A DNA stretch of 64,000 bases from an uncultured Pseudomonadota bacterium (GTDB lineage Bacteria; Myxococcota_A; Polyangia; Fen-1088): contig CAVSOL010000017.1 of assembly GCA_963729535.1 (NCBI GenBank), positions 233,456-297,455 of the forward strand. Reading direction: 5' to 3'. Positions within the stretch are counted from its first letter, which is position 1; every line of letters starts with the position of its first letter. The notes below the pieces were generated by a model that was given only the letters and a program-made list of their open reading frames with translations, was not told the DNA's origin and did not search any database. The translations under genes were made by a program, and so were the position numbers. Of the stretch, positions 9,475-52,790 are shown piece after piece.

Positions 9475-9533
9475 CCCGGTTGTGGTTTCCAGGAGCATGG
9501 TCAGGTTTTTTCTTACAGAAAGGGAGGCCGACC

Positions 9534-9755: not shown

Positions 9756-9816
9756 CTGTTGAACTGACCGGCTCGCACGGCGGCGGCGAAGATCTGATAC
9801 AGACTTAGCCGCCACC

Positions 9817-22839: not shown

Positions 22840-22863
22840 CTACAACGAACTCAGGAGCCTGCC

Positions 22864-24142
22864 ATGCAACGGATCAAGGACCGCCTCAAGCTCATCGCAA
22901 CCCGCATCTACGTCATCGTGCGCGCCGCGCTGGCCGCCGTCGTGCTCGGCATGATCGAAACCTTCGGCAGCCAGCGCGGCCGCCGCCTGCTGGCGACCGG
23001 CGCGCTGCTGGGCACGGGCCTGCTGCTGGTGCTGCGCCCGCCGGTGCGCGTGATCGCGCCGGGCGAGGTGGGCGTGCGGGCGAACCGCCTCACGGGCGGC
23101 ATCGCCGTCCTCGGCGAGGGGCCGGCGATGGTGCTGCCGATGCTCCATGAGCTGCGGCGCTATCCGCTGCGCGATCAGATCTACAAGCCGGCGGACAGCG
23201 CGCGCGCCGAGGGCGCCGCTCCGTTCCAGACCGTCGAGGGGTTGTCGGTGGGCGTGTCGGTGAGCGTGCGCTATGCGCTGGACCGCGATCGCATCGCCGA
23301 CATCGCCAAGCGGCTGCCGACCAACGTCGGCCACGAGCTGATCGAGCCCGTCGTCGACGGCGTGTTGCACCGGTCGCTGGCCAAACACACAGTGCGCGAG
23401 ATCTTCACCGACAAGCGGGTGGAGATTCAGCAGGCGATCGAGCAGGAGTTGCGCGCGCTGCTGGCCAAGGACGGCGTCGTCATCCGCTCGCTGTTCATCG
23501 GTCACGTCGATCTGCCGGCGCAGTACCGCAGCCGGCCTGGAAGGTCTGCTGGCCGAGGAGCTGGCGAGCGAGAAGATGCGTTTCACGCTGCAGCTCAAGG
23601 AGAAGCAGGTGACGGAGAAGTCGCTGGAGGCGGACGCCGCGAAGATCCAGCGCGAGAAGGCGGCGGAGGCAGCCGCGTCCGAGCAGCTGATCGCCGCCAA
23701 GGCGCGCGAGGAGGCGATGAGACATGTGCTGCCGCTGAAGGAGAAGGAGATCGAGCAGCGCCGCCTGGAGGCGGAGGCGCGCAAGGTGCAGCGGGTGAAG
23801 GACGCCGAAGGCGAGGCGGAGGCACGCAAGATCGAAGCCGGCGCCGAGGCGGACTCGCGCCGCAAGCTGTCCGACGCCGACGCGTACCGCATCGAGGTGA
23901 CCGGCAAGGCGCAGAGCGAGCAGCTGGCGCGCGATTCGCTGCTGATCGCCAAGAACCCGCTGCTCATCCAGAAGACGCTGGCCGACAAGCTGAGCGACAA
24001 GATCCAGGTCATCGTCGCGCCGCCGGCGGCGGGCGGCTTCTTCGCGGGCGGGCTGATCGGCACGCAGCCGCGCGGCCAGCTGTCGGCGGCGGTGGACACC
24101 CGGACGGCGGCGCCCGCCAACGACAACAACGGAGGCGAGTAA
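22864..24142 (+). CDS. SPFH/Band-7 (prohibitin/flotillin-like) membrane protein with a long coiled-coil tail. One frame change near 23525.
   Basis: N-terminal TM segments, then VRVIAPGEVGVRANRLTGG..FQTVEGLSVGVSVSVRYALD..VREIFTDKRVEIQQAIEQEL. After the frame change the sequence continues EKMRFTLQLKEKQVTEKSLEADAAKIQREKAAEAA.. (E/K/A-rich). Confidence 0.85.
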
Positions 24143-26377: not shown

Positions 26378-26423
26378 CGGTCGCGACTTTCATTCGATGA
26401 TTCACACCAACCTGGGAGGGGAC

Positions 26424-38573: not shown

Positions 38574-38957
38574 GTGCCCGTTCGTACCAAGCGCTGGAAC
38601 GATCCCGCGGACGTGGACGATGGGTTCCGGCTGCTCGTCTGCCGCATCCGCCCGCGCGGCATCGCCAAAACTGATGAGCCCTGGGACGAGTGGTGGCCCG
38701 ATCTCGGCCCCAGCCGCGGCCTGCTCGACGACTTCCACGGCAAGCGCGGCGCCGCCATCACCTGGGACGACTACGTGCCGCGCTACCTCGACGAGATGCG
38801 GGGCGCGGCGCAGCTGTGGCGCATCCGCGACCTCGCGCGCCGCGTGGGGGAGGGGGCCACCGTCACCTTGCTCTGCTCGTCGGCGTGCACCGACCCCGCC
38901 CGCTGCCACCGCACGCTGCTCGCCCGGCTCGTCACTGCGGCGGCAGCGCGACCATGA
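38574..38957 (+). CDS. DUF488-family protein
   Basis: RWNDPADVDDGFRLLVCRIRPRGIAK..WWPDLGPSRGLLDDFHG..VTLLCSS matches the DUF488/YeaO pattern. Confidence 0.7.
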   Translation: MPVRTKRWNDPADVDDGFRLLVCRIRPRGIAKTDEPWDEWWPDLGPSRGLLDDFHGKRGAAITWDDYVPRYLDEMRGAAQLWRIRDLARRVGEGATVTLLCSSACTDPARCHRTLLARLVTAAAARP

Positions 38958-40272
38958 GCACGTTGAGGCACATCTCGTTGCGCGTCCCCCAGCCCGGGAA
39001 CACGGGATCGCGATCGCGCGACGTATCGTATTCGCACGTGACCTCGAGCTGCGTGTCCGCCGTGATCCGCGGCGGCGTCCGGTAGAAATAGAACTCCTGC
39101 CAGTGGAAGTCCCAGTTCTCGATGCGCGACGCGCAGCTCATGCCGCCGGCGGGCCCCATCATCATCGTCTGGCGGACGCCGCGCTCGTGCATGTGCGGCA
39201 TGACGGCCACCAGGTCGACGTACGGGAGGCTGCCCAGGCCGAGGTCGGCGCCGGTTCGCGTCCACGTGTACTTCGTGTTCGCCTGGCCGGACGGTAGCGA
39301 GTCGGGCGTCGCGCTGTCCAGGCTGTCCAGGAACGGATCGGGGAGCAGGAACGCCAGGCCGCGGCTGACCGAGCTCGCGAAGCGCAGGCGCACCGTGGTG
39401 CTGTCGGTCTTGCCCGCGCTCGACGGGTCGACGAGGTTGTAGTGCACCTGCACCACCAGCTTGTCGGTGGTGCTCACGGGGAACCCCATGCCGCTCGGGT
39501 AGTTGACCACGCCCTGGCCGGGCGCCCAGGTCACGGGCACGCCGCTGACGTCGACGCCGTCGCCCGCGGCGCCGAAACACGGCCAGCCCAGACGATCGGG
39601 CGACGCGCCGTCGAGCTCCTGCATGATCGCCGCGTTGGTCCGGCCGCCGGAGCCCATCGCCGTCGGATCGACGGCGAAGACGAGGACGTGGTGGACGATC
39701 GACGGGTCGCCCGGAACCACGTCGTAGCCGGTGAGGAACGCGTTCGACGGGTTCGGCGGGTCGAGCAGGAAGCAGCGGTAGTCGTCGAACTCCGCCAGCG
39801 TCCCGCCCTGCGGGACGGGGGCGAACGTCGGCGTCTCGATGTCGAGCGCGCCCTCCAGCGCCGGCTTGGTCGGCAGCGTCAGCGTGACCTTCGTGCCCTC
39901 GGCCTGCGCACCTTCGACCCACGCGGCGATGGTCGCTTCTCGGCGGCGGTCAGCGTCGCGTCGCGCTTGAAACGACCCGCAGCTGTCGTCGTGGACCATG
40001 AAGTACGGCGGCATCGTGCCTTCGTTGACGCGCGCGAGCTCGGCGGCCGCGTGGGTCTTCGCGTCCGCGTAGTTGTCGAGGCGGAACGGGCCGATGCCCC
40101 CCTCCTGGTGGCAGCGCACGCACTTGGCGTTGTAGATGGGCGCCACGTCCTGCCAGAACGTGACGCCCATGCCTCCATCGCCCGGCGGGTTCGATCCGCC
40201 GCCACCACACGCGGCGGCGGACGTGATCACGATCAACAACACCAACAGCGTCAACGGTCGCTTTGTCTGCAT
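38932..40272 (-). CDS. Copper type II ascorbate-dependent monooxygenase-like (PHM/DBH-like) lipoprotein with an N-terminal CxxCH segment
   Basis: GAGGAG RBS and lipobox ITSAAACG. The N-terminus carries VAPIYNAKCVRCHQEGGIGPFRL. CuH-like residues: SIVHHVLVF and VQVHYN. CuM-like residues: MPHMHERG and RNEMCL. Confidence 0.75.
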   Translation of the reverse strand: MQTKRPLTLLVLLIVITSAAACGGGGSNPPGDGGMGVTFWQDVAPIYNAKCVRCHQEGGIGPFRLDNYADAKTHAAAELARVNEGTMPPYFMVHDDSCGSFQARRDADRRREATIAAWVEGAQAEGTKVTLTLPTKPALEGALDIETPTFAPVPQGGTLAEFDDYRCFLLDPPNPSNAFLTGYDVVPGDPSIVHHVLVFAVDPTAMGSGGRTNAAIMQELDGASPDRLGWPCFGAAGDGVDVSGVPVTWAPGQGVVNYPSGMGFPVSTTDKLVVQVHYNLVDPSSAGKTDSTTVRLRFASSVSRGLAFLLPDPFLDSLDSATPDSLPSGQANTKYTWTRTGADLGLGSLPYVDLVAVMPHMHERGVRQTMMMGPAGGMSCASRIENWDFHWQEFYFYRTPPRITADTQLEVTCEYDTSRDRDPVFPGWGTRNEMCLNVLMVALPPQ

Positions 40273-40355: not shown

Positions 40356-40960
40356 TCAAAGGACGAAGTTAACTAGCAGCTTTTCTTCGCCGCGAAGCAG
40401 TTCTTCCGGAAACCGCCAGCGTTTGAGTCGGTTGCTGTAGCAGCGCTTGACGTCTTTCGGCGAGCCGTCCGCGCCCAGGATCTGCACGAAGTCGACGGCG
40501 CCGTCGGATCCGATCTCGAACGCGGCGCCCAGCTTCATCGGCGGGCCGCGATCGGGCTCGGCGAGGCAATCGCGCAGCTCCGGCGCGCGCTTCTCGGCGA
40601 ACGCGCGCAGCGCCTGCGTGCGCGCGCCCTCGTCCATCGGCTTGCTATCCGGCAGCGGCGCCAGCGTCTTCGCCACCGGCTTGCTGCGCTTGCCCGCCGG
40701 CACGGCGGCGTGATGTCGCGCGGGCGCCGGGGCCGGCGCGGGCGCGCACGCGACGGGGGCGAGGGCACGCCGGGCGGCGGCGGCGGCGGCGCGGCCGCCT
40801 GCGCCTGGCGGCCGGCGACGAGGTATCCGGTCAGCCCGCCCGCCGCGAACACCACCAGCGCGAACGCCACCGCGCTGGCGGCGCGCCGCTTGGTCGCCGG
40901 CGCGCCGCCGGGGCGCGCGCCGTTTCTCAGCCAGGGGGGAAGGTCGGACCGGTTGGCCAT
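40356..40960 (-). CDS. Bitopic TonB/AgmX-like protein (TM helix, Pro-rich spacer, TonB-C-like domain). One frame change at the G5 run 40755-40759.
   Basis: MANRSD..KRRAASAVAFALVVFAAGGLTGYLV, then AAAPPPPPPGVPSPPVACAPAPAPAPA, then ELRDCLAE..KLGAAFEIGSDGAVDFVQILG..VKRCYSNRLKRWRFPE. Confidence 0.65.
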
Positions 40961-40979: not shown

Positions 40980-42050
40980 TCAGCGCGAGCCGACGACCGC
41001 GGCGACACTCTTCCCGAGCTTCTTGACCGCCTCCTCGGGGTTCTCCGCGATCAACTCGCAGAAGTCGCCGATGTGGCCGGTGCCGCGGTTGGCGCCGTTG
41101 AGCGACAACATGAGCGGCATGAAGTACAGGTTGGCGGACGGCCCCATCACGTCGAACAGGTTGCCCGGGAAGCCGTTGATCTTCGAGCAGCGGGTCCGGA
41201 ACGCCGACAGCGACTCCCCTTCGGCGGTCGCGATGGCGACGTGGACGACCTGTCCGGCCGGGATGCCGGCGCCCGGGAACTTGAGCCACGCCGCGTTCCC
41301 GGCGGCGTCGGTCTCGCTCAGGATGTCGGCGGGCGCGCGTCCGTCGACCAGGCAGGCCGCGCTGTCCGCCGCGCAGCGCCGCTCGAGCGGCTGCAGGTAG
41401 ATGACGATGAACAGATCGCGCGGCTTGTCGAACAGCGCGGTGCGATCGATGCCGCCGAGTATCGGGGGCAGCGCCTCGCCGCCCAGCCCCTGCCCGAACT
41501 TGATCACCGCCTCCGCCTCCGAACGCGGCGGGTTGTCGCCTTCGAAGCTGCCCGACGACGCCAGCAGCCGGAGGACCTGCGGCAGGTCGTCGTTGCTGAT
41601 GTTGCCCAGCGAGCCGCCGATGAACGGCAGCAGCGACTCGTAGTCGCGCACGCCCGCGTCAGCCGCGCGCGCCAGCGCCGCCACCAGCACCTGCGAGTCG
41701 GTCGGCTGCGTCCCCGGCCGCTGCCCGAGCACCAGGCGCGGTCCGAACCGATCGGCGTACGTCGCGATGACGCCGATGTTCTCGACCTTCAGCCCGACAC
41801 CCTCCAGGTAGGCGCTGAGCCCCGTGAGGATGCTGGTGTACTTGTCCGCGAGGTTGGCCGACGAGCGCTGCAGGTTGGCCACCACCAGCACGCTCGCCGT
41901 CAGCGGCTTCGGCTGCGGCAACGCGTCCGGCCGGATCGGAATCAGCACGAACTTGGGCTCGCCGCCGTCATCGCCGCCCGGCACGACGACCGTACAACCG
42001 GCGACCGCCGCCGCCACCAGCAACACTCCCGAGAACACACGCGACTTCAT
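40980..42050 (-). CDS. Hypothetical lipoprotein (356 aa)
   Basis: ATGA overlap with the upstream stop. Lipobox LLVAAAVAGC. No family recognised. Confidence 0.6.
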   Translation of the reverse strand: MKSRVFSGVLLVAAAVAGCTVVVPGGDDGGEPKFVLIPIRPDALPQPKPLTASVLVVANLQRSSANLADKYTSILTGLSAYLEGVGLKVENIGVIATYADRFGPRLVLGQRPGTQPTDSQVLVAALARAADAGVRDYESLLPFIGGSLGNISNDDLPQVLRLLASSGSFEGDNPPRSEAEAVIKFGQGLGGEALPPILGGIDRTALFDKPRDLFIVIYLQPLERRCAADSAACLVDGRAPADILSETDAAGNAAWLKFPGAGIPAGQVVHVAIATAEGESLSAFRTRCSKINGFPGNLFDVMGPSANLYFMPLMLSLNGANRGTGHIGDFCELIAENPEEAVKKLGKSVAAVVGSR

Positions 42051-43156
42051 AGCGCCACCACCTTGCTCTTGGTTCCTTCATTGTCGGACGCAAGCCCCAG
42101 CGTCGGTGACGTCAGACCGCGATCGCGCAGCGCCTTGCGCAGCGCCGCGAACATCGCGCGGCGTGCCTCGGCGGATTCGCGCGGCGTCGGCGCCACCTCC
42201 AGCGACAGGTCTTCCTGGATCGCCGCCGCGACCGTCCGCGGCAGCGCGGCCAGCGCGCGCGTCGCGACGACCTCGGGGGCCTCCCGCAGGTAACGCGCCA
42301 GCACCTCGGTCGGCACCGCCATCGCGGCGGCGGCGAGCAGCTCGTCCGACACGCGCTCGAACGACTGGTCGTTGATCAGCGCCGCCTGCACGGCGCGCGC
42401 CTTCGCCGGGTCGGCGCGGCGCATCGCCTCCAGGATGTCGCCTTGCTCGTCGGACGGGCGCTCTTCGATCAGCTCGACGGCGAGATCGATGTCGCCGGTC
42501 TCGCCCGCGTCCAGGTGCGCCTGCTCCTCGGCGCGCGCGCGCAGCGTCGCGGCGACGTCGAGCAGGTGCTCCTTCGACAGCGACCGCGGCGCCGCCAGCG
42601 CCGCCGCCAGCGCCGAGCGCTCGGCCGGCGAGCGCTCGCCGAGGTAGACCGACCGCAGGTGGGCAGGGGCATAGCGCAGCGCCGCGGCCTGCACGGACGC
42701 CTGCTCGGGCGCCAGCACCGCCGCCAGCCGCTGCGGCGACAGCCCCAGCAGGAACGCGAACTCCTGTTCGACCGGATCCTCCGCGCCCACCATCCGGTGC
42801 TTGAGGATGCGCCGGTGAAGCTGCGCGACGATGTCGCGCGTGTCGCTGCGCGATCGCCCCTCGACGAGCAGCGCCGCCGCCTCGCGCAGCGGGACCGCGC
42901 ACGCCGGATCGCCGCGCAGGTCCTCGACCACGCCCGGGCCGACCAGCTCGACGGTGACGGCGACCTTCTCCAGCTCGCGCTCGCGCAGCAGCTCGCCCAT
43001 CACGCGGCGGGCCAGCACGCGATCCTCGCGCAGCGCGCGCCGCACGTCCGGCAGGTGATCGGCCGCGGCGGCGGCCGCGGCGGTCGACGCTGCCTTGCCG
43101 GCGCCCGCTGCCGTCGTCCGCGCTCTTGTCACGCCCCTGCGCCTGCGACGCTTCAC
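42047..43156 (-). CDS. FliG-like (FliG/MgtE-N superfamily) cytoplasmic domain protein. Probably continuous with 43153..43836 after frame correction.
   Basis: GDILEAMRRADPAKARAVQAALINDQSFERVSDELLAAAAMAVPTEVLARYLREAP and ALAALPRTVAAAIQEDLSLEVAPTPRESAEARRAMFAALRKALRDRGL resemble the FliG middle and C-terminal domains. This is pattern-level only; no alignment was run. Confidence 0.55.
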   Translation of the reverse strand: MKRRRRRGVTRARTTAAGAGKAASTAAAAAAADHLPDVRRALREDRVLARRVMGELLRERELEKVAVTVELVGPGVVEDLRGDPACAVPLREAAALLVEGRSRSDTRDIVAQLHRRILKHRMVGAEDPVEQEFAFLLGLSPQRLAAVLAPEQASVQAAALRYAPAHLRSVYLGERSPAERSALAAALAAPRSLSKEHLLDVAATLRARAEEQAHLDAGETGDIDLAVELIEERPSDEQGDILEAMRRADPAKARAVQAALINDQSFERVSDELLAAAAMAVPTEVLARYLREAPEVVATRALAALPRTVAAAIQEDLSLEVAPTPRESAEARRAMFAALRKALRDRGLTSPTLGLASDNEGTKSKVVAL

Positions 43157-43836
43157 CCTGGCGGCGCCGCGCCGACAGCAGCGCCATCACCAGCGCGCCG
43201 ATGATCAGGCCGGCGATCGCCAGCGCGATCGCGATCCAGATCGGCGTGCCGCGCAGCCCGGACGGGCTCCTGCGGCACGGGCGGCGGCGGCGCGGGCGCC
43301 GGCTGCCGCGCTCGGCGGGCTGCGGCGGCTGCTGCATCTGCGGCATCGGCGGGTAACTGAACGGCATCTCGCGCGGCGCCGGGCGCCTGCGGCCGCGGCG
43401 TCGGAAACGCGATCAGCGTCTCGCGGATATCGATCGGCACCGCGATGCCGTCCAGGCGGTTCTTGATCAGGGTCTTGAGGTCCTTGCGAAACGGCACCGG
43501 CAGCTTGGAGTCCAGCGTCAGCGCCACCTCCGCCTTCTCGGCGACGAACTCGGTGCCGGGCGCGAACTCCTCGAAGCCGGGCGCGGCGCCGGCGGGGAGC
43601 GCCGTCGGGCGCGTGACCCGCACGTCGACGTACTTGAGCTCCGCCTGACCGGGTGCCATCTGTTCCAGCAGCGGCACGATGCGGCGCTCGATGTCCTCGC
43701 GGACCCGCGCTTCCAGCATCGCCGCGTCGCTGCCGTTCGGCGGCCGCCGCTCGGCGCGTGCGGCGCCGGCGCCCAGCCACGTCAGCACCGCCGCGCAACC
43801 CGCGGCCAACACCACATGTCGTTTGAATCGAGACAT
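43153..43836 (-). CDS. Signal peptide, periplasmic domain, Pro/Gln-rich linker and single TM helix. This is the N-terminal part of the FliG-like protein if the two frame changes (about 43370 and 43140) are errors.
   Basis: ATG at 43836 with GGAGG 10 nt upstream. Signal VVLAAGCAAVLTWLGAGAARA. TM helix IWIAIALAIAGLIIGALVMALL followed by SARRRQ (frame of ORF 42078..43367). Confidence 0.55.
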   Translation of the reverse strand: MSRFKRHVVLAAGCAAVLTWLGAGAARAERRPPNGSDAAMLEARVREDIERRIVPLLEQMAPGQAELKYVDVRVTRPTALPAGAAPGFEEFAPGTEFVAEKAEVALTLDSKLPVPFRKDLKTLIKNRLDGIAVPIDIRETLIAFPTPRPQAPGAARDAVQLPADAADAAAAAARRARQPAPAPPPPVPQEPVRAARHADLDRDRAGDRRPDHRRAGDGAAVGAAPPG

Positions 43837-43849
43837 GGACCTCGTCCTC

Positions 43850-44554
43850 CTAATGAACACGGATCACCACTCGCCTGTTTTCCGAACGGGCGCGGGTCTG
43901 CGCCGCCCCGTCGCCGGTGACGGTCGTCGCCGGCCTCGTCTCCGCGTAACCTTGCGCCGACAGCCGCTGCGGGCTGATGCCGGCGGCCGTGAACTGCTTG
44001 AGCACGTTGATCGCGCGCGCCGACGACAGATCCCAGTTGGAGTCGAAGCGCGCCGTGTGGATGGGGACGTCGTCGGTGTGCCCCTCGATCGCGATCTGGT
44101 AGCGCGAATCGATGGTGGGCACCATCTTGACGACGCGATCGATCGCCGTGCGGCCCCCCTGCGTGATGTCGGCCTGGCCGCTGTCGAACAGCAGCGCGTT
44201 CTTCAGCTCCATCCGCAGCCCGGCGTCGTCGACGACGGTCTTGACCTGCGCCTGCAGCCCCTGCACCTCGAGCATCTGGTCGATCTTTTCCTTCAGCGCG
44301 TCCAGCGACGGCGGCGGCGCCGTGCGCGACAGCGCGGCGGACACCATCTCGAACTTGTGCAGGCTGACCTTCGACATCGCCAGCGCCAGGATCAGGAACG
44401 CGAGCAGCAGGCTGATGACGTCGACGTAGGGCAGCAGCCACGACGTGTCGTCGTCCTCGCTGTAAGCCAGCAGGTCGGAGTGGTCGTGCCCCCGACTGGC
44501 GCGCGCCGCCCTGGCGGTGCCGGGGACGGCGGCCTGGGAATCCGCCACGCTCAT
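43850..44554 (-). CDS. motB: MotB-type stator subunit with an OmpA-like peptidoglycan-binding domain
   Basis: ATGA overlap with motA. TM with conserved Asp: WLLPYVDVISLLLAFLILALAMS. OmpA-like domain: IAIEGHTDDVPIHTARFDSNWDLSSARAINVLKQF and GYAETRP. Confidence 0.9.
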   Translation of the reverse strand: MSVADSQAAVPGTARAARASRGHDHSDLLAYSEDDDTSWLLPYVDVISLLLAFLILALAMSKVSLHKFEMVSAALSRTAPPPSLDALKEKIDQMLEVQGLQAQVKTVVDDAGLRMELKNALLFDSGQADITQGGRTAIDRVVKMVPTIDSRYQIAIEGHTDDVPIHTARFDSNWDLSSARAINVLKQFTAAGISPQRLSAQGYAETRPATTVTGDGAAQTRARSENRRVVIRVH

Positions 44555-45312
44555 GCAGCCTCCGCCGACGGTGGCGCGCTACCGGACGCGCCCGACAGCA
44601 GCCGCAGGTCGTAGAGCGATCGCCCCTCGGCGATGCTGGTCAGGCCGCGCTCGAGCAGGCGCGCGCTGACCGACAGGTTGCGGCCGTAGCTGTCGATGCG
44701 GCGCGCGAACGGCGCCCAGATGCCGTACGCCAGGATGAGGCCGTAAAGCGTCGCCAGCTGCGCGACCGCCATCGCCGGCCCCAGCTGCTCGAAGTTGCGC
44801 AGGTTCATCAGCATGTTCACCAGGCCGACGATCGTCCCCATCAGGCCGACGGCGGGCGTCGTGCGCGCCAGGAAACGAAACACCTCTTCGCCCGCCTTGA
44901 CCTCGGCGAGGCGCGCGTACGACAGGGTCAGCACGGTCTCGCGCGCGTCGGCGCCGCCGCCCGGTTGCAGCAGCAGCGGCCCGACCTCGCGCAGCAGCGG
45001 GTCCTGCGCCTCGGCGAGCACCTTCGACGCCTCGACGTTGCGCCCCTGTTTCAGCTCGCGGCCGAAGCGATACAGGTCGGCGATCATGCGCGCCTCGGCG
45101 CGGCGCGGGTTGTGGCGAAGCGCCTGCGCCAGCGTCACGATGCCCCGCCAGATGTCGGACAGGTTGTGGCCCACCAGCAGGATCGCGGGCGGCGCGCCGA
45201 GCAGCAGGATGAACGCCGCCGGGTGGAAGAACCCGGTGAACCCCGTGGGCATGTGGTTGCGCGTCGCCACCAGCGTCAGCGCCAGACCCGCCAGACCAAA
45301 GATGATGTGCAT
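44551..45312 (-). CDS. motA: MotA/PomA-type stator channel subunit (4 TM)
   Basis: TM1-2: IIFGLAGLALTLVAT and AAFILLLGAPPAILLVG. A cytoplasmic loop of about 100 aa follows. TM3-4: TTPAVGLMGTIVGLVNMLMN and AVAQLATLYGLILAYGIWAPFARRI. Confidence 0.9.
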   Translation of the reverse strand: MHIIFGLAGLALTLVATRNHMPTGFTGFFHPAAFILLLGAPPAILLVGHNLSDIWRGIVTLAQALRHNPRRAEARMIADLYRFGRELKQGRNVEASKVLAEAQDPLLREVGPLLLQPGGGADARETVLTLSYARLAEVKAGEEVFRFLARTTPAVGLMGTIVGLVNMLMNLRNFEQLGPAMAVAQLATLYGLILAYGIWAPFARRIDSYGRNLSVSARLLERGLTSIAEGRSLYDLRLLSGASGSAPPSAEAA

Positions 45313-45342: not shown

Positions 45343-46113
45343 CTATTTGCTGAGGCGCTGCAGCGCTTCCAGGATCGCCAGGTTGTAGGGATTGATGCGC
45401 AGCGCCTGCTGCCACGCCTCGCGCGCCATCTGCTTCTGGCCCAGGCGCTCGGCCAGCGAGCCCTTCATCGACAGGATGTGCTCGTCGTCGGGGTATTGCC
45501 GTTCCAGCTCGACCAGCTCGACCAGCGCCAGCTCGTATTGCCGCGCGCGGTACATGTCCTTCACGCGCGCCAGCGTCAGCAGGTAGCTGGCCTTCGCCGC
45601 CGGCGGCTTGTCGGCGCCGGGCGCGGACGCCGGCGTCACCCTGCGCCGGTCGGGCTTGGCGGCCTTCGCGTCCTTACCGTCATCTTCGTCCTCGTCGTCC
45701 GCGGCCGCACGCTTGCCGCGCGCGCCCGCCTTTCTACCCACGTTGCCGTCGCGCGCGTCCTTGGGCCGATCGCCGTCGGCGAGCTGTTCCGCCCGCGCCG
45801 ACGCCTCGCGCTCGGCCATGATCTCGCGGTCGGCGGCGGTCATCGACGCCAGGTCGGCGCGCATGCCCGTCACCTTGCCGCTCATCGGCACCTTGACCTC
45901 GTACGCGGTCGCGATCTCGGGCAGCTGGATCTCCCAGTCGCGCTGGCCGTCGGTCATCTTGACGACGTAGCGCGTGCGCGGCGGCTCGCCGCCCGCCGTG
46001 TACGGCGCCCCGCGCAGCAGCTCGGGCGGCACGCGCACGTCGGCGGGGACGGGCCGCGTCAGCGTGCAGCCGCCCGCCGCGATCAGGAACGCCAGTATCG
46101 AAAGTCTTGCCAT
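45343..46113 (-). CDS. TPR lipoprotein with a highly charged central linker
   Basis: Lipobox AFLIAAGGC. Central linker KRAAADDEDEDDGKDAKAAKPD. C-terminal TPRs: YELALVELVELERQYPDDEHILSMKG..AREAWQQALRINPYN. Confidence 0.7.
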   Translation of the reverse strand: MARLSILAFLIAAGGCTLTRPVPADVRVPPELLRGAPYTAGGEPPRTRYVVKMTDGQRDWEIQLPEIATAYEVKVPMSGKVTGMRADLASMTAADREIMAEREASARAEQLADGDRPKDARDGNVGRKAGARGKRAAADDEDEDDGKDAKAAKPDRRRVTPASAPGADKPPAAKASYLLTLARVKDMYRARQYELALVELVELERQYPDDEHILSMKGSLAERLGQKQMAREAWQQALRINPYNLAILEALQRLSK

Positions 46114-46118: not shown

Positions 46119-47537
46119 TCACCAGTTCATCGCCGCGCGCAGGCGGAAGCCAACGCCACCTAGATCGTAGCCCGAGAACTTCGTCGGGAACACGTACATG
46201 AGCCCTCCCTGCAGTGACAGCCGCCACTTGAGGTGCGTGTCCAGGCCGCTCTCGACATAGAACGTGTTCCCCTCGTTGCCGGAGAACATGCCGCCGCCCT
46301 CCGTGTAGAACCAGACCTCGGCGCGATTGAGGTTGGGCGGCGACAGGTTGTGCGAGAAGTACGCGCCGAGCAGGATCGAGTTCAGCGCGGTCGGGCCCCC
46401 GGCCGTCGCCTGTTTGGGTGGTCCGGTGGTGAAGATGCCCGCGGACAGCCCGAACAGGCTGCCCAGGTCCTCACCGAACTTCTCGTGAAACCTCAGTGAC
46501 ACCTGCGCGCCGGCGATGCTGCCGGTGGGCGCGTTGTAGCCGACCTGCGCGACGCCCAGCGACGCCGCGTAGCCGTAGTTGGGGCGCGCGGCGATCTTCT
46601 GTTCCAGCTCGGCGGCGCGTTCGGCGCGGGTCGGGATGCGGCGTCCGGTGCGCAGCAGCGCCGCCATCGTGGCGTCCGACCGATAGGCGTCGCTCCACAC
46701 CACGCCGCCGTCGGAGGCGCGGAACGCCATCGCCTGCATCCACACCACGTTCGAGTTCGGCGCGTAGGTGAAGTCGACGTCCATGAACGTCTTGATGCCG
46801 GTGGTCTGGCCGATGCGCCGCAGGTCCTCCTGCTTGACCGCGCCCATCGTCACCATCCAGTTGCCGTCCTCGACGCGCGAGCGCAGCGACGTGCACTCGG
46901 CGCACACCGTGATCTTGACGCTGGTCGAGTTGACCAGCCGCGCGATCAGGCGCGTCTCCAGCGTGCGCGCGAACTCGGGTCGCAGGTTCGCCGACAGGCG
47001 CACCAGCCGGATCGACATCGGCGACAGCAGGTTCGGATCCTCGCGCGCGAGCTGGCGCGCGATCTCGTCCATGATGTCGTCGACCAGCTCGAAGAAGTCG
47101 ATGCTCGACTGCGATCGCTGCACCAGCTGTTCGACCGCGCTGGGCGACGCCGGCCGCTGGGGCTGCGCGCGCTGCTCGACCTGGACGCGGTTGGAGCTCG
47201 ACACGCCGGCCGACGCGGCTTCGACCATCGTCCCGGGCCGCTTCGGAGTCGTGGCCGGCGGCTGCGTCGGCTGGCGGTAATAGCTGCGCGGGGTCTCCCG
47301 GTCGTTTCGCTGTGGCACCTCGCCGGTCTTGGGATCCGGCTGCCCCTGCGAGGAGTCCTGGCTCCGCCTCGGTTGCGGCGGCAAGGAGTCCGGGGTCCCC
47401 GACGGCGGCACCCACGGCGCTTGCTGCGCCTGCGCCCACGCGGCGCGCTCCGCCAGGGCGCCCGCGACGAGCGCGGCCGCGATCCCGATCGCCGTCAATG
47501 ACCTAGAACGCAATGCCCACCTGGAAACGGACGCCAT
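46119..47537 (-). CDS. Predicted outer-membrane protein: Pro/Gln-rich linker, alpha/beta domain (LpoB/CsgG/FlgO-like pattern) and C-terminal beta-barrel
   Basis: Signal SLTAIGIAAALVAGALA. Alpha/beta domain: IDFFELVDDIMDEIARQLA..IRLVRL..TLETRLIARLVNSTSVKI..EDLRRIGQTTGIKTFMDVDF..AMAFRASDGGVVWS. Alternating beta pattern ending ..GVGFRLRAAMNW. Confidence 0.6.
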   Translation of the reverse strand: MASVSRWALRSRSLTAIGIAAALVAGALAERAAWAQAQQAPWVPPSGTPDSLPPQPRRSQDSSQGQPDPKTGEVPQRNDRETPRSYYRQPTQPPATTPKRPGTMVEAASAGVSSSNRVQVEQRAQPQRPASPSAVEQLVQRSQSSIDFFELVDDIMDEIARQLAREDPNLLSPMSIRLVRLSANLRPEFARTLETRLIARLVNSTSVKITVCAECTSLRSRVEDGNWMVTMGAVKQEDLRRIGQTTGIKTFMDVDFTYAPNSNVVWMQAMAFRASDGGVVWSDAYRSDATMAALLRTGRRIPTRAERAAELEQKIAARPNYGYAASLGVAQVGYNAPTGSIAGAQVSLRFHEKFGEDLGSLFGLSAGIFTTGPPKQATAGGPTALNSILLGAYFSHNLSPPNLNRAEVWFYTEGGGMFSGNEGNTFYVESGLDTHLKWRLSLQGGLMYVFPTKFSGYDLGGVGFRLRAAMNW

Positions 47538-48313
47538 GTTTGTCCGCATCAACGCTGCTTTGCCATATCGCCAGCAAATCCTTGCTCGGGAGCACCATCG
47601 TGTCTTCCGCCCCCGTGAAGTAGATGTATTCGAACAGGTATTCGAGGCTCAACCGTAGCGCGGAGACCGACAGCTGCACGCCGGCCGCCAGGTTGAGGCT
47701 GTGGGCCCGGCCATTGCCTTTCATGAAGACGCTCTGCCCTGTCATCGGGTCGAAGCGAAAGACCTGCAGGTGGGCCTTGGTCACCGAGAAGCCCGCGCCG
47801 ACAAACGGCGTGAAGTCCTTGGGGAGCAGCATCCAGCGTCCGCTGCCGCCCATCAACGTCCGGGTGCAGTCGCCGTTGAGCGACCCGTACATGTCCGTTG
47901 CAGTTCATCTCGCGCTTGCCGTAGCGGGCGGAGACCTCGAGCTGGCGCAGGATGTTCCACGAGAACACCGCGCCGTAGCTGGCCAGGCCGGTGCCCAGGA
48001 AGCCTTCGACCGACAGCGGGCGCTGCACGCGCTGGGGCTGCGTGGTCGCGAGCCAGTTCGCGATCGCGGCCTCGCGCGCCTGTTGCTCGGCGACCATCGC
48101 CTGCCGCCGCTCGTTGGCCAGCCGGCGCTCGAACATCTGCAGCCGGCACGCGCGGTGGGCACGCGCGGCCGCGGGGCTTTCGTCTTCGGGGTCGAACGAC
48201 AGCGCCTGCTCGCACGCGTCGTCGCTGACCTGCTGCACGAACGACTGTGCCCGCGCCGCGCGCGCGCCTGCCAGCGCCAGCGCGACAACGACGAGGACGC
48301 GCGCGGCGATCAC
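47503..48313 (-). CDS. Predicted outer-membrane beta-barrel protein. One frame change near 47890.
   Basis: GTGA overlap with the upstream stop. Signal VLVVVALALAGARAARA. C-terminus ..HGVRFQVGIAF. Confidence 0.6.
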
Positions 48314-50347
48314 GAGCCGCCTCCAGTCGATTGGACGCTGTCGACGCTGCCAACGGCGCCGTTGGCGCCCATGGCGACGCCGAGCGGGCGCGGCCAGCGA
48401 CGCAGTCCGCCGGGGGTGGGGTCATTGCCGCGGCTGGGGACGAACACGACCGGTCCGACCTCTTCCAGCGCCGACCCGACGTCGATGCGCGGCATGCGCA
48501 CGTCGTACTTGCGGCCGATGAGCACGTCGCCGAGCAGGATCGGGCGCCGAGCCGAGCCCACCGTCTCCGCGTACGCGCGCGCCCCGGTCTTGAGGTGGGC
48601 GCTGGCGGCGCGATACAGCGTCGTCAGCTCCTCGTCGACGGGTCCCCGGCCCGCGTCGCCGAGGTGACGCTTCAGCGTATCCACCAGCGTGCCCAGGTTC
48701 GCCTGGTCGTCGTTTTCGACCAGCGCCGGCAGCGCGTCGCGCGCCACCACCAGCAGCGCGCGCTGCCAGTTCACCGACCGCGCCGCGCGCCGCTTGTCGC
48801 GCGCGCGGTCGCGCTCGGCCGTCGCGATCAGCGCGCCGTCCTTCGGAAGTCTGTCCGCGCGCGGTTTGTCAGCATTCGCCTTGGCGTTGAGCGCGATCGC
48901 GTGGCGCATGCTGTCGTCCATGTCGAGCTCGCTGTTCTCCTCCTGGCCGGCGAGCAAGCGGAACGTGCGCGCGAACTCGGCGACGGTCGCCGGCGCGCGC
49001 CGCCGCGACCGACGCGCGCGCCAGGTGCTGCAACGGGCGGCTGCCGTCCTTGTCGTTTTCGTTCAGCCACAGGAAGGTGGCCATCGCCGACTTGAACGCC
49101 TGCGCCTCCAGCGCGAGCTGCGCGAACGCCTCCGCGCGCTGCAGGCGCTCGCGCGGCGGACCAAGCGACTCCAGCACCTCCAGCGTCTCGGCGGAGACCG
49201 GCGACGCCAGCAGCGTGCGCAGCGCCAGGTCCATGACCGCCGCCAGCGCCGGATCTTCGTCCACCTCGCGCCGCGAGCGCCGGTTCAGCACCTCGCGCGC
49301 CTCCGCCAGCAGGTCGCCGCGGCGGCCGGCGCGCGCGTGCGCCTCGGCCTGGCGGAACGCGATGAAGCGCCCCACGGGGTCCTGGCCGTGGGGCGGCGGG
49401 CCGAGCATCACGACGGCTTCGTCCTTCTTGCCGAGCGCGATCAGCCGTTCAGCGAGCAGCAGCGACAGCGATCGGCGTGTCTCGGGCGCCAGCGGCAGCG
49501 CCAGCGCGGCCCGCCCGCGCGCCTGCAGCTCTTCGGCGGTCAGGTGCGGCCACGACAGGGCGGCGACGCCCGACGCCAGCAGCATGCGCGCGCGTTCGGC
49601 GGGCGCGATCGCGTCGGGCGCGAGGCGCTCGAGGCGCGCGAGCGGCGCCGCCGCCGCGGCCGCGTCGCCGCGCGCGACGTCCAGCACCGCGGCCTGCACG
49701 AGCAGCACCGGCGTCGCGGGGTGGGAGGCGGGGAGGGTGGTGGCGGCGTTCGTCACCAGCGCCACCTCGCGCTCGCTGGCGGCGGCGCTGGTGAGCCCGG
49801 CGACCTGGGTCGGTTGGTCTCCGCAAAGGCTGGTGACCGCCGGCATCGGCAGCTCGTCGCTCCAGTGCTCGCGCTCGACGGGCCAGAAGATGCCGCCCTC
49901 CCGCTCGCCCAGCTGCGTGCGCGCCGGCGCCGTCGCCCGCCCCGCCGCCTGGGTGCCGCGACTGAGCCGGAGGCGTTCGATCTGCACCAGCCGCCGCAGG
50001 TGGTCCCACGGATCACGCAGCGGCTTGCGAATCGCCTGCGCCGCCGGGATCGCCGCCAGCGGCTCGCAGCGCAGGAGCGCGAGCAGCTCGGACCAGAAGT
50101 CCAGCGCGGTGTCCGGTCGGCCGGCTTCGCGGTCCGCGAGCCGCGTCAGCGCGACGTGCGCCGTCGTCAGGTCCCCGCGCCACACGGCATCGCCGGTCGC
50201 GACCAGCAGCTCGTCCCGCGTCTCGTGCGCCGGCCCGACAGCGCCGACCAGCGGCGCGCGCTGCGGCCGACGACCGGACGCCGCGCACGCGGCGCACGCC
50301 GAGACGGCGGCCAGAGCCGTCGCGATGACGACGGCGCGCCCGTTCAC
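48310..50347 (-). CDS. Large hypothetical lipoprotein/periplasmic helical protein (about 679 codons). One frame change near 48955.
   Basis: GTGA overlap with the upstream stop. Signal AVVIATALAAVSACAAC. ORFs 48869..50347 and 48310..48957 join as ..ARASVAAARAGDR / ..FRLLAGQEENSEL.. No family recognised. Confidence 0.6.
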
Positions 50348-51120
50348 AGCGTCCCTCCCACGCCGATCGAGGGCATGATCCCCCAGACCGAGACGCCGTT
50401 GCCCGAGCGCTGCTCGCGTTCGTACACCACCGAGGCGTCGATGCGCGCGAACAGCTTGGGCGTGAAGAACACCAGCAGGCCCAGGCCCGTGTCGGCCGAC
50501 GGCCCCGTGTCGCCGTCGTGGACGTGCAGGCCGCCGCGCGCGAACACCTGAGGCTCGAAGTGCAGCACGCCGCCCAGGCCGCCCACCATCAGCTTGCCGT
50601 AGCCGATGGAGTAACGCGCCCCCGCCAGCATCAGCCAGCCGGGCGCGTGGCTGTCCGGGATCGCGCCCAGCGTCTCCTTGATGCGCTCCGCCTCGGCGTT
50701 GAGCGAGCTCCAGAAGTGCGACACCTGCAGCTCGATTCCGAGCTGCTCGAGCAGGTAATACGTGCCGCCGGCGCGGAAGCCGGGGCTGATATAGAAGTCG
50801 CCGCGCGACAGGTACGCGAACCCGCCGGAGATCTGGAACTGCTTCGACTTGACCGCGTAGCGCGACTGCACGCGCACGGCGGTCACGGGGCGCGGCGCCG
50901 GGTCGGCGATCAGGCCGCGCGCGGGGGCGAGCGGCGCGGTCGCCGCCGCCGTCAGCGGCGTGGCCGCGGGCGCCGTGGTCGCCGCCGCGGGCGCGGGCGT
51001 CGCCGCGATCGGCTTCGACGCCGCGGGGGCCGAGGCCGCCGCCACGCGCCTAGTTGTCGTCGTCGTGGCGACGACTGTGACAACTAGGCAGGCGGCCAGC
51101 GTCGTCGAGCGCATCGACAT
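50344..51120 (-). CDS. Predicted outer-membrane beta-barrel protein (myxobacterial OMP beta-barrel-like)
   Basis: This is the C-terminal part of ORF 50344..52500, starting at MSMRSTTLAACLVVTVVA. Ala/Pro/Thr-rich linker, then YAVKSKQFQISGGFAYLS..ARYSIGYGKLMVGG..SIGVGGTL. Confidence 0.65.
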   Translation of the reverse strand: MSMRSTTLAACLVVTVVATTTTTRRVAAASAPAASKPIAATPAPAAATTAPAATPLTAAATAPLAPARGLIADPAPRPVTAVRVQSRYAVKSKQFQISGGFAYLSRGDFYISPGFRAGGTYYLLEQLGIELQVSHFWSSLNAEAERIKETLGAIPDSHAPGWLMLAGARYSIGYGKLMVGGLGGVLHFEPQVFARGGLHVHDGDTGPSADTGLGLLVFFTPKLFARIDASVVYEREQRSGNGVSVWGIMPSIGVGGTL

Positions 51121-52790
51121 CAGTAGTCCTTGCTCGTGCAAAACGGGCTGTCCACCCATGACTCCTGGCCCATGCCACTCGGCGTGACGTAGCCGTGGTC
51201 CTCGCAGTAGCGCGTGCAGATCTGATAGTTGACGCGCACCTGGGCCGCGACGAACGAGCTCCCCGGCACCTCCACCTGTTCGGGCAGCCCGACCAGGTAT
51301 GCCGGCGGATCGGCGGTCGTGATCTCCCAGCTCGGCTCGAAGATCGGGATCGCGTATGGCCCGGCCGACGACACCGGGAGGATCTCGGGGCTCGACGTGC
51401 AGATCTTGATCCGCTTTCCGGCATGGGTCTCGACGTCCTGGGGCGACAGCAGGTGCACGGGAACGTCCGAGCTGTGAAGCTGCGTCCTGAAGGGGAGGTT
51501 GCCCCTTTGGTAGGTGTCCAGCATCAGCTCGAAGGTCGGGTCGTCGTAGGTCAGCCAGGGCTCGGGGTACATCCACGGCAGCTCGGACAGCGTTCTCGTC
51601 GTCGGCGGGGAGAACATCCAGGCGAACGTCTGCAGGGTGTGGCCGGGGGGCGGCCCGGCGAGCGCGGCGAACAGCTCCTCGAGCGACTGGGTCAGCTTCG
51701 GCGGCAGAAACCCATCCGAGTTGTTGAAATACAAGAAGTGGTACTGGTGATGGACCTCTGTGAACGTCGTGACGGTCTGCTTGACGGCGTCCGCGATCTG
51801 GGCGGCCGCGACCGTGCGGCCGGTGGGCTGGTGGCAGCCCGGTGACAGGTCGATCGTCGGCAGCTTGCGGACGACCGCTTTGTCGCCCCTCATGTATTCC
51901 GCCGTGAGGCTCTCGATGGTCGCCGCCGCCTCCGCGCAGCGGTCGGCGAGCGGAATCTCCAGATCCAGGACCACCTGGTAGATGATCGGCGACGTCTCGA
52001 TCGGCGGGTTCAGCACCTGCTGCGCCGTCACGACCTCGGGCAGGGTGGCGATGGGCGCCTGCAGCATCGCCCTGTCGCCGTTGTCGGTTGGCACCGGGCG
52101 GACGGCGACGCAATACCGGCCGGCCGCGGTCAGCGGCTTGTCGGGTGGAATACCGGCCATGAGATCCAGCGGGTGAAACACCACGTCGTCGGGCGGCGTA
52201 TCGGCAACGCACACACCGGCCGTTGGCCACAGGGCGCGCTCGAACTGCCGGGGGAACTTGTAGTCCCCGGCGCTGCCGACGGCGTCCGTCAGGTTGACGA
52301 AAACGGGGTCGTTCTTGAAGTTGAAGAACGCCTTCATCGTGAACGAATCGGCGATGGTTTTCGACTTGGCCGGCGCGCCGGGCAACTCGCCATAGGCCTC
52401 GTGAACCGCCCGGACTGGACGAAACTGTCCGGCCGGCGGGCGCTGCGGGTAGTGGCCACGCACGACGTATTGCGCGCAGCTGTGCGTGCCGTCGCCGCAC
52501 GCGACGACGCCGCCGGTGAACAGCGAGCGCGAGAAGTCGACGGGCTGGTAGCCATCGGGGCCGAGCAGCTCGAACCGCGCCTCATCAACGGGGGCGGTTG
52601 CCTCGACACGCCAGCGCACGATCGTAAGGTGCTCCTGCGCGCTATAAACCAGCTCGACATTCTGTGGGGTGAAGGGCGACGGCAGGAAATGAACGTCGCC
52701 GCAGCCGACGACGGCGGTCGTCAGCAGCGCCATCCACGCCAGGCAGCGATGGCGGCCGGATTGCTTTGTGGGAGACTGAGGAGCAAGCAT
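51120..52790 (-). CDS. Large hypothetical lipoprotein (556 aa), first gene of the operon
   Basis: Lipobox LLTTAVVGC. Intact ORF with lower Arg/Ala bias than its neighbours and 10+ Cys. Its stop shares 1 nt with the next start (TGATG). Confidence 0.65.
   Translation of the reverse strand: MLAPQSPTKQSGRHRCLAWMALLTTAVVGCGDVHFLPSPFTPQNVELVYSAQEHLTIVRWRVEATAPVDEARFELLGPDGYQPVDFSRSLFTGGVVACGDGTHSCAQYVVRGHYPQRPPAGQFRPVRAVHEAYGELPGAPAKSKTIADSFTMKAFFNFKNDPVFVNLTDAVGSAGDYKFPRQFERALWPTAGVCVADTPPDDVVFHPLDLMAGIPPDKPLTAAGRYCVAVRPVPTDNGDRAMLQAPIATLPEVVTAQQVLNPPIETSPIIYQVVLDLEIPLADRCAEAAATIESLTAEYMRGDKAVVRKLPTIDLSPGCHQPTGRTVAAAQIADAVKQTVTTFTEVHHQYHFLYFNNSDGFLPPKLTQSLEELFAALAGPPPGHTLQTFAWMFSPPTTRTLSELPWMYPEPWLTYDDPTFELMLDTYQRGNLPFRTQLHSSDVPVHLLSPQDVETHAGKRIKICTSSPEILPVSSAGPYAIPIFEPSWEITTADPPAYLVGLPEQVEVPGSSFVAAQVRVNYQICTRYCEDHGYVTPSGMGQESWVDSPFCTSKDY

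Follow-up and report, generated by a model that had tools for sequence, protein, structure and literature searches.

The locus described here raises the question of what a MotA/MotB stator of the flagellar type might act upon where no other flagellar gene lies beside it. It is located in a stretch of 64,000 nucleotides (henceforth the window) of contig CAVSOL010000017.1 (assembly GCA_963729535.1, positions 233,456 to 297,455) from an uncultured bacterium placed in the Polyangia (GTDB lineage Myxococcota_A; Fen-1088), and its central element is the gene g9 (window 42047-43836, minus strand), the ninth in a cluster of 11 genes, which directly follows the genes for MotA (g7) and MotB (g8). An original prediction, made from the letters alone, had suggested that g9 might encode a single-polypeptide rotor with a FliF-like periplasmic and a FliG-like cytoplasmic half, provided that two frame changes were assembly errors. 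Using comparative genomics and structure prediction we identify g9 as a single gene coding for a predicted membrane-tethered homologue of FliG, and we propose, with a probability of roughly 0.6, that its product and MotAB form a flagellum-independent stator/rotor (or stator/adaptor) pair powering a trans-envelope machine.

One gene spread over three frames

The mechanical list of open reading frames (ORFs) gives three overlapping minus-strand ORFs in three frames over this region (43153-43860, 42078-43367 and 42047-43156). Taken at face value these could be separate genes, one for a secreted protein (43153-43836), one for a small membrane protein and one for a cytoplasmic protein with FliG_C (42047-43156); in a variant of this reading, the segments would be joined by programmed frameshifting. 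The GC content of third codon positions (GC3), which is a strong coding indicator in this region of a 72% GC window, picks out frame A between 43836 and about 43400, then frame B as far as about 43110 and frame C down to 42047, each at 0.9 or more in turn. This switching is a genuine coding signal and not chance, and once past the shift points the tails of ORFs A and B are low in GC3 and lack homologues. The start is the ATG at 43836, preceded as originally described by GGAGG, with a spacing of 9 nt rather than the 10 nt given earlier.

The conceptual three-frame fusion (596 aa) recovered more than 190 relatives in a search of 5.8 billion proteins; the best 120 of these are almost all 580-600 aa in length, cover the query end to end and are 61-92% identical to it. 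As intact orthologous DNA we used two soil metagenome contigs (L001 and L002), which align base for base with the g9 DNA of the window apart from single-base differences. Together with the closest relative, the 97%-identical protein P0064, and the intact orthologue P0001, this alignment places four single-base indels that break g9:

43381-43383, minus strand: indel 1, an extra C within CCC, frame A to B (alignment to L001 and L002)
43305-43310, minus strand: indel 2, one base too few (or two too many), frame B to A (from P0064 and P0001)
43260-43266, minus strand: indel 3, an extra C, frame A to B (P0064 and orthologous DNA)
43101-43103, minus strand: indel 4, an extra C, frame B to C (orthologous DNA)

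Four one-base edits restore an uninterrupted ORF of 595 codons, in agreement with the roughly 595 codons estimated beforehand, whose product is 94.4% identical to P0001 and 97.4% to P0064; the intact metagenomic orthologues compared with it (431-592 aa) are 94-97% identical. The first and last of these shifts correspond to the two frame changes that had been noticed originally. Between the two middle indels GC3 is high in both frames, so that frame statistics do not reveal this pair. With four indels instead of two, the Arg-rich stretch RGSRRPRRRRPCRRSPS of the earlier frame-B reading is out of frame, and the linker in frame reads ...PPQPAEQRQPAPAPPPPVPQEPVGLRGTPIWIAI... (also given as ...PPQPAEQRQPAPAPPPPVPQEPVGLRGTP...).

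The claim of one gene had been put forward as refutable by an in-frame stop splitting two genes; the orthologues are each a single uninterrupted ORF of 580-600 aa with no such stop. Thus g9 is a single gene, as in its relatives, and the reading as separate genes is already refuted by the intact orthologues and the DNA alignment. Programmed frameshifting was likewise rejected, as none of the four sites shows a slippery motif or is conserved in the relatives.

The four indels are most likely homopolymer-type assembly errors. We read them in this way because three neighboring genes of the cluster (g3, g4 and g11) are frameshifted as well, and because g9 has no in-frame stops and is highly conserved. 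The frameshifts of g3 (near 49000) and g4 (near 47897) were located by tblastn with orthologues from Illumina-assembled metagenome-assembled genomes (MAGs) as references, and that of g11 lies within its Pro-rich spacer by a two-frame reading. All indels of g9 and g11 fall in GC-rich runs of Pro codons (79% GC in the g9 stretch), which is typical of homopolymer sequencing error. Several genes outside the cluster also look split (those for an alpha-2-macroglobulin, a Band_7 protein and an amino-acid permease), similar artefacts are seen at related loci from long-read MAGs (e.g. a MotA of 128 aa at L003), and the window appears to be drawn from an indel-prone assembly. Alternatively, the cluster might be decaying in this organism, with the indels of g9, g3, g4 and g11 being biological: there are at least seven frame-disrupting indels across four of the 11 cluster genes, and the net shift of +2 in g9 leaves no single ORF in the window. 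Nevertheless, the absence of in-frame stops, a GC3 above 0.9 throughout and the 94-97% identity to intact orthologues, indels aside, make a true pseudogene unlikely, with very recent pseudogenization of g9 retaining a small share of the probability.

A FliG-like domain carried on a membrane anchor

The product of the restored ORF comprises the following features:

42047-43836, minus strand: g9, 595 aa, with signal peptide, periplasmic module resembling a ring-building motif (RBM), linker, transmembrane (TM) helix and FliG-like domain (GC3, homologues, DNA alignment and restored ORF)
43753-43836, minus strand: signal peptide, residues 1-28, with predicted cleavage between ARA and ERRPP (sequence reading and conservation)
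43408-43731, minus strand: predicted periplasmic alpha-beta-beta-alpha-beta module, residues ~36-143, ending in an invariant FPTPR (AlphaFold2 models and Foldseek)
43176-43241, minus strand: the only TM helix, IWIAIALAIAGLIIGALVMALL, with the positive-inside SARRRQ behind it (translation; AlphaFold2 helix 198-228 in an orthologue)
42113-43060, minus strand: all-helical cytoplasmic domain, predicted to correspond to full-length FliG with its N, M and C parts (Foldseek, Pfam and a sequence bridge through P0205)
42131-42427, minus strand: match to FliG_C (PF01706), including the torque-helix equivalent PRTVAAAIQEDLSLEVAPTPR (Pfam)

An AlphaFold2 model of P0001, built from 81 aligned sequences with a mean predicted local distance difference test score (pLDDT) of 75.8, shows an N-terminal hydrophobic helix, a compact domain (residues 38-142), a disordered linker (145-197), a TM helix (198-228) and an all-helical region (258-568) that adopts the three-domain armadillo-like fold of FliG. 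Structure searches of the PDB with Foldseek using this cytoplasmic region recovered FliG chains over 312-335 columns with E-values from 3e-8 to 5e-5, among them 8wiw_3 (E = 3.2e-8; 312 columns against a chain of 310 residues), Aquifex FliG (PDB: 3hjl; 335 columns against 321) and Salmonella C-ring subunits. Consistent with this, the ORF 42047-43156 matches the Pfam FliG_C family above its gathering cut-off (28.0 bits against 23.3; E = 2.7e-6), as the orthologue at L010 does with 26.6 bits. An orthologue matched FliG_M below the cut-off (16.4 bits against 25; E = 0.01), a family that distant relatives of g9 do reach. Further, a profile of the g9 family recovered the distant member P0205 (E = 2e-23), which in turn matched the FliG of Aquifex (E = 5e-11) and Thermotoga (E = 7e-9). 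These results bear out the FliG-like fold first suspected from the sequence, and the predicted structure indicates that the cytoplasmic part corresponds to the N, M and C domains of FliG together and not to the C domain alone. An identity with MgtE_N was considered and rejected, as the match (16.5 bits) fell below the cut-off of 25.9 and the fold search places full-length FliG first.

The charged torque helix of E. coli FliG is defined by R281, D288, D289 and R297. In a joint FliG alignment, E538 (invariant) and D539 (conserved in at least 90%) of the g9 product align with a D-E pair of Thermotoga FliG equivalent to D288/D289, and R549 lies one residue after the position of R297; E538, R555 and R556 of the FliG-like domain are invariant in the relatives. 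This largely corresponds to the charged pattern noted originally as comparable to the torque helix but 1-2 residues longer, the flanking arginines being one residue off. Flagellar FliG is soluble and encoded with fliF, fliM, fliN and export genes, whereas the g9 product has its own TM tether and no flagellar family nearby. We conclude that it shares ancestry with FliG and is FliG-like, without being an orthologue of the switch protein.

The part N-terminal to the tether begins with a signal-like segment (MSRFKRHVVLAAGCAAVLTWLGAGAARA) followed by ERRPP. Across 81 relatives A28, R30, R31 and P33 of this junction are invariant, and its A-x-A motif is compatible with cleavage by signal peptidase I, which lends weight to the cleavable signal predicted earlier. 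The periplasmic module that follows is about 110 aa in length, close to the 120 aa first estimated. Two independent AlphaFold2 models, the second of them of the N-terminal 151 aa of the window's own g9, give the same order (helix 38-60, strands 65-75 and 97-109, helix 114-128 and strand 135-142) at a pLDDT of about 90. An alpha-beta-beta-alpha-beta order in a compact periplasmic domain beside a TM anchor is what characterizes RBM proteins (FliF/SctJ/SctD/SpoIIIAG), and the top PDB match is indeed the RBM3/collar of FliF (6sd1_A; E = 1.9e-4; TM-score ~0.38), followed by many MS-ring chains and by PrgK at 2e-3. The predicted topology is therefore compatible with a ring-building motif, with a fold assignment that is weak and not unique. 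The Pro/Gln-rich linker and the TM helix with SARRRQ behind it are both present in the translation as originally described, and the g9 product is thus predicted to be a bitopic inner-membrane protein of 595 aa. A match of the fusion to the NCBIfam GltJ model (22 bits against a cut-off of 450) spans the TM helix and the Pro-rich linker before it and was judged to be compositional.

A flagellar-type stator encoded directly upstream

Immediately upstream of g9 are two genes that by their sequence code for the subunits of a stator:

44551-45312, minus strand: g7, MotA/PomA-type stator A subunit, 253 aa, with the loop ...GRELKQGRNVEASK... (Pfam MotA_ExbB and PDB sequence matches)
43850-44554, minus strand: g8, MotB-type stator B subunit with plug, TM helix with a conserved Asp, and OmpA-like domain (Pfam and PDB)

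The g7 product matches Aquifex MotA with E = 2e-16 (residues 21-208, the loop included) and PomA with E = 1e-15, with ExbB at 4e-3, and its top NCBIfam matches are PomA, MotP and MotA. The MotA cytoplasmic loop DLYRFGRELKQGRNVEASKV is wholly invariant in 17 orthologues, including K88 and E94, which align with the K and E of the Aquifex 'RKEGILALEG' at a spacing that is 1-2 residues shorter; the reference pair is E. coli R90/E98, and the counterparts are less clear in the distant MotA of L027. The g8 product contains a MotB_plug (33.7 bits) and an OmpA domain (62.9 bits) by Pfam, matches the MotB structure 6ysf with E = 1.8e-26, and the Asp of its PYVDVISLLL aligns with that of the MotB TFSDTITLLL. 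These features agree with published criteria for stators of the flagellar class ('FIT'; PMC12505986), and by these comparisons the stator beside g9 is of the flagellar MotA/MotB type. The MotA and MotB genes share 4 nt, g9 follows after a gap of 13 nt that contains a ribosome-binding site, and the stop of g9 overlaps the start of g10, such that MotA, MotB and the g9 fusion are translationally linked.

A non-flagellar envelope cluster

The remaining eight genes of the cluster code for predicted components of the cell envelope (OM, outer membrane; TPR, tetratricopeptide repeat):

51120-52790, minus strand: g1, secreted protein or lipoprotein, ~560-600 aa, first gene of the cluster (synteny)
50344-51130, minus strand: g2, OM beta-barrel, ~261 aa (OMP_myx_plus match in an orthologue, tblastn)
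48310-50347, minus strand: g3, helical lipoprotein, ~680 aa, frameshifted (tblastn)
47503-48313, minus strand: g4, OM-barrel-like protein, ~268 aa, ending ...QVGIAF, frameshifted (tblastn, Illumina-based MAGs as references)
46119-47552, minus strand: g5, secreted protein, 477 aa, with a C-terminal barrel-like region ending ...AAMNW (synteny)
45343-46113, minus strand: g6, TPR lipoprotein with the lipobox AAGGC (Pfam TPR; tblastn to L025, L027 and L029)
40980-42050, minus strand: g10, lipoprotein, 356 aa, whose ATG overlaps the g9 stop (ATGA; synteny)
40356-40960, minus strand: g11, TonB-like bitopic protein with TM helix, Pro-rich spacer and AgmX/PglI-type C-terminal domain, frameshifted (NCBIfam)

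The orthologue of g2 matches the NCBIfam family OMP_myx_plus with E = 1e-12 (48 bits, below the cut-off of 60). The g11 product matches NF033768 (AgmX/PglI; the tail domain of GltJ/GltG) with E = 2.3e-7 (30.8 bits, below the cut-off of 40), a match that is also found at L012 (12778-13389). Searches of Pfam, NCBIfam and PDB sequences gave no usable match for g1, g3, g4, g5 and g10, and g5 in particular has none in Pfam or PDB. All 11 genes are collinear, from g1 to g11, in each of the 16 loci with enough flank.

Flagellar Pfam families are found neither in about 30 other ORFs of the window nor elsewhere in the cluster nor in the flanks (~20 kb) of related loci, and specifically no fliM, fliN, flhA, rod, hook or filament gene occurs in the cluster, the 64-kb window or the ~20-kb flanks examined. 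By this gene content the cluster around g9 is a non-flagellar envelope cluster. The g9 system resembles flagellar FliG and FliF (Salmonella, Vibrio, Aquifex, Thermotoga) in the three-domain FliG fold with an acidic pair aligned to D288/D289, in the order and best PDB match (FliF RBM3) of the periplasmic module, and in an adjoining MotA/MotB stator of flagellar type. The rival notion that g9 is a genuine component of a flagellum, namely a natural FliF-FliG fusion serving as MS ring and C ring in a flagellated myxobacterium, can draw on this type of stator, on the annotation of many family members by JGI as 'flagellar motor switch protein FliG', and on engineered FliF-FliG fusions, which work in Salmonella (PMC4768692). 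However, the flagellar loci encode two polypeptides where g9 encodes one; FliF has three RBMs, a beta-collar and two TM helices, whereas the g9 product has one small module of ~110 aa and a single TM helix, preceded by a predicted cleavable signal peptide; and FliG keeps the FliM-binding EHPQR and the MFxF motifs, both of which the g9 family lacks, its score against TIGR00207 being far below the equivalog cut-off. Moreover, the FliM/FliN, export-gate, rod, hook and filament genes of flagellar loci are missing near g9. Because there is neither a FliM/FliN switch nor a type III export apparatus, we do not regard the g9 system as a flagellum, and consider this alternative very improbable.

Distribution and conservation of the stator-fusion pair

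A scan of 185,579 species-representative genomes recovered 20 loci, all from Polyangia or Myxococcota MAGs. When 1.84 billion cluster representatives were searched exhaustively with the family profile, the superfamily grew to 317 clusters (at 50% identity) with E <= 1e-3, 166 of them with E <= 1e-10; wherever the source of one of the 317 could be traced, it was a metagenome or an uncultured MAG. The members fall into two length classes of ~540-620 aa and ~720-970 aa. In the long relatives (P0205 and P0226) the periplasmic module occurs twice in tandem (internal repeat E = 1e-5), much as several RBMs are present in SctJ and FliF. Each of these copies has a CxxxC motif, which is without counterpart in the family of the window, and ends in FP(Q/R)P, followed by a Ser/Asn-rich spacer.

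The gene order that links g9 to the adjacent stator, its partner in the original prediction, is conserved in all close loci and in four of the five distant subfamilies examined, down to a GC content of 50%, and to that extent the comparison favors the partnership. Thus, P0151 (on a 7.5-Mb contig) and P0139 keep the whole cluster, P0273 (969 aa) is found in the context MotA-MotB-fusion, and P0205 (50% GC) in the order g5-like, g6-like, fusion, cyclic-nucleotide-binding protein, MotA and MotB. Given that four of five distant subfamilies keep it, the stator-fusion pairing is ancient and nearly universal. Likewise, g5 and g6 are further core partners that are found in distant clusters too.

Certain distant loci display additional features. 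At L027 a cyclic-nucleotide-binding protein of 168 aa (4035-4541) is encoded between the tethered FliG-like gene (1636-4041) and motA, and may be a regulator of the motor. At L025 (6226-8295) g5-like and g6-like (TPR) genes are apparently fused to code for a product of 689 aa; if true, this fusion would support a physical interaction of g5 and g6. The L028 member (8001-10205; GCA_016186945.1), of 734 aa, has no motA, motB, g5-like or g6-like gene within 8 kb.

Proposed mechanism and alternative geometries

Taken together, these observations suggest that the g9 product is probably the dedicated cytoplasmic-face partner of the MotA5B2 stator encoded directly upstream. MotAB would be held to the peptidoglycan by the OmpA domain of MotB, and ion flow would turn the MotA pentamer, whose charged loop (K88, E94) would engage the torque-helix residues R530, E538 and D539 of the FliG-like C domain. 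The tethered g9 protein would thereby be driven within the membrane, and its periplasmic module would, via the TM helix, hand the movement to the products of the cluster, i.e. three OM-barrel-type proteins, four lipoproteins and the TonB-like protein. The data show that relatives have a single gene, and they show the domain architecture, the homology to FliG, the flagellar type of the stator and the conservation of synteny; from these we infer contact with MotA, assembly of a ring, its rotation and an output of the machine, and 'rotor' is used here in that sense.

Several findings weigh against this proposal. In the window as given g9 is not translatable as one protein. At the level of the whole family, the score of an orthologue against TIGR00207 (E = 0.015) is 14.7 bits against an equivalog cut-off of 226.7, and the family profile recovered only chance matches and no FliG among PDB sequences at E <= 10, which is why the link to FliG was made through Pfam, structure and P0205. 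In a MAFFT alignment with Thermotoga and Aquifex FliG the FliM-binding EHPQR is lost, EHPQ being replaced by PEQA with the Glu alone kept, and the MFxF hinge is absent (MFVF replaced by LIND). The torque-helix Arg is displaced, with R530 one residue before the R281 position and not invariant. As for the periplasmic module, no match of the g9 product to Pfam YscJ_FliF was obtained at E <= 0.1, nor is there detectable sequence similarity to SctJ or FliF. OsmC (2e-4) and the C-terminal domain of MamM (MamM-CTD; 1.7e-3, with a target-normalized TM-score of 0.6) match it equally well, rendering the RBM assignment weak and non-unique; the original suggestion of a ring-building motif gains from the predicted topology and the best PDB match to FliF RBM3, without becoming a unique assignment. 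Further, P0211 (L028; 'Deltaproteobacteria bacterium') has no MotAB within 8 kb, and of the contexts examined it alone departs from the pairing with a stator. Finally, the carriers are all uncultured MAGs, and the absence of flagellar genes covers the cluster, the window and the flanks rather than whole genomes.

Within the stator/rotor or stator/adaptor reading we favor a geometry in which the subunits form a ring, with one polypeptide taking the place of both the MS ring and the FliG ring, because all three FliG domains are kept, the module is RBM-like and duplicated in relatives, and engineered FliF-FliG fusions assemble and rotate. In its full form, with g9 forming an inner-membrane ring that is spun by MotAB without a flagellum and passes rotation to OM barrels and lipoproteins to drive a surface process, this picture is tentative. 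If the ring reading is true, the output might be, for instance, gliding, the transport of surface polymers or proteins, or envelope remodeling; the system would be a seventh, previously unrecognized class of machine driven by an ion-powered 5:2 motor; and, depending on the phylogeny, it would have arisen by exaptation of the rotor-stator pair of the flagellum or be left over from a rotary module older than the flagellum. The cluster as a whole has a substantial chance of being a new class of 5:2-motor machine.

A serious rival to the ring, given the Glt-like composition of the cluster, is a force-transducing adaptor, in which one or a few tethered FliG-like subunits would act as a rack or lever for a single MotA5B2 wheel. 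Such a subunit would be pushed laterally or change its conformation, conveying force to an OM complex in the manner of TonB/ExbBD, TolA/TolQR or GltG/GltJ/AglRQS. The TonB-like protein with its AgmX/PglI-type domain, the myxobacterial-type OM barrels and the TPR lipoproteins recall Agl-Glt/Nfs, and a single small periplasmic module on a long flexible linker, the non-unique RBM assignment and the absence of the switch-complex motifs that organize the flagellar C ring all fit an adaptor. Yet the protein keeps all three FliG domains, which are known for ring polymerization and stator contact, and its periplasmic module has a ring-forming FliF domain as best structural match and is, like RBMs, duplicated in relatives. 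On this balance the adaptor seems possible but doubtful.

Comparison with known systems

The nearest precedent for the g9 product is the natural FliF-FliG fusion of the Chlamydiaceae (PMC4768692; Bergeron 2016), which likewise combines a signal/TM segment, RBM-type module(s) and a TM helix with a FliG-like part in the cytoplasm, all in a single polypeptide, in bacteria that are not known as flagellated. The chlamydial protein is ~330 aa in length, shows SctJ-type homology (RBM2), contains only a FliG M-like region and has been considered a possible injectisome partner (PMC4768692). In contrast, the FliG-like part of g9 is full length by prediction, including the stator-contacting C domain, and the periplasmic module shows no SctJ/FliF sequence similarity. 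Engineered full-length FliF-FliG fusions in Salmonella and Vibrio still allow the ring to assemble, and those in Salmonella also allow rotation (PMC4768692, PMC11481574); since a covalent FliF-FliG linkage permits this, a tethered FliG is mechanically plausible. Those fusions are laboratory constructs in a complete flagellum, whereas g9 codes for a natural protein in a non-flagellar cluster.

With the Agl-Glt and Agl-Nfs systems of Myxococcus (PMC3858216) the g9 cluster shares an ion-driven 5:2-type motor, a TonB-like protein of the AgmX/PglI type, OM beta-barrels and TPR lipoproteins. The motor of the former is the TolQR-type AglRQS, whereas that of the g9 cluster is MotAB with plug and OmpA domain and has a FliG-like partner. 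Orthology to Agl-Glt is not indicated, as the scores for GltG (12 bits against 650) and GltJ (11 bits against 450), and the Glt-family matches in general, remain below the cut-offs. ExbBD-TonB, TolQR-TolA, GldLM and ZorAB (PMC9389320, PMC12505986) resemble the g9 system in that an A5B2 unit is encoded beside the protein acted on. In these systems the partner engages the motor by TM or periplasmic parts, whereas the interface predicted for g9 lies between the cytoplasmic MotA loop and the FliG C domain, as in the flagellum.

Novelty and implications

Full-text literature searches, which did not cover most subscription journals, returned no account of a FliG family that is tethered to the membrane and linked to MotAB, nor of a cluster of the g9 type. 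To our knowledge the FliG/MotA interface has no established role outside the flagellum. What is new is a widespread FliG-like family that is covalently tethered to the membrane and nearly always encoded beside a flagellar-type stator with no other flagellar gene. We rate the g9 family as a case of a redeployed flagellar rotor-stator pair; it suggests that the torque-generating pair of the flagellum was used, or originated, as a stand-alone module. The family could accordingly serve as an outgroup or derivative for testing scenarios for the origin of the flagellar motor, and its cluster points to an undescribed trans-envelope machine of soil myxobacteria. As one polypeptide without switch complex or export apparatus, g9 is a naturally minimal rotor candidate for reconstituting and imaging stator-rotor coupling. 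As a label for its role in the cell, the 'minimal' partner of the original prediction is misleading, g9 belonging to an envelope cluster of 11 genes. Current annotations as 'flagellar motor switch protein FliG' or 'hypothetical' may falsely imply flagellar motility when traits are predicted from MAGs.

Further observations on the window and related loci

Directly downstream of the cluster (38932-40272, minus strand) is a gene for a secreted lipoprotein with a cytochrome c-type domain and domains like the N and C domains of copper type II ascorbate-dependent monooxygenases. The window also encodes sigma-54 enhancer-binding ATPases (6053-6844 and 20225-21952, both on the minus strand), one of them with an FHA domain, and at L003 a sigma-54 activator is found about 8 kb from the cluster.

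Two overlapping plus-strand ORFs of the window, 26397-29711 and 29671-32088, together resemble an alpha-2-macroglobulin. The first contains MG domains and breaks off within the bait-region domain (profile positions 3-103 of 140), the second starts with A2M, TED and MG10 domains, and they are probably one gene of ~1,900 aa that is frameshifted near 29690. A Band_7/SPFH domain (22852-23538 and 23531-24097, plus strand) is cut off after profile position 153 of 176, exactly at a change of the high-GC3 frame, and an amino-acid permease ORF (14204-15070, plus strand) begins at profile position 155 of 427; these truncations look like further frameshifts.

Among the related long-read MAG loci, the 128-aa MotA fragment of L003 (8820-9206) is a frameshift artefact, and an 805-aa protein of L004 (1023-3440) is a g1/g2 chimera whose middle part is out of frame. 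The called proteins of the MAGs behind L003 and L004 are consequently unsafe as references unless checked. A g1/g2 frameshift in the window, which the L004 protein had seemed to imply, was rejected, as Illumina-based MAGs show g1 and g2 to be separate and L004 to be faulty.

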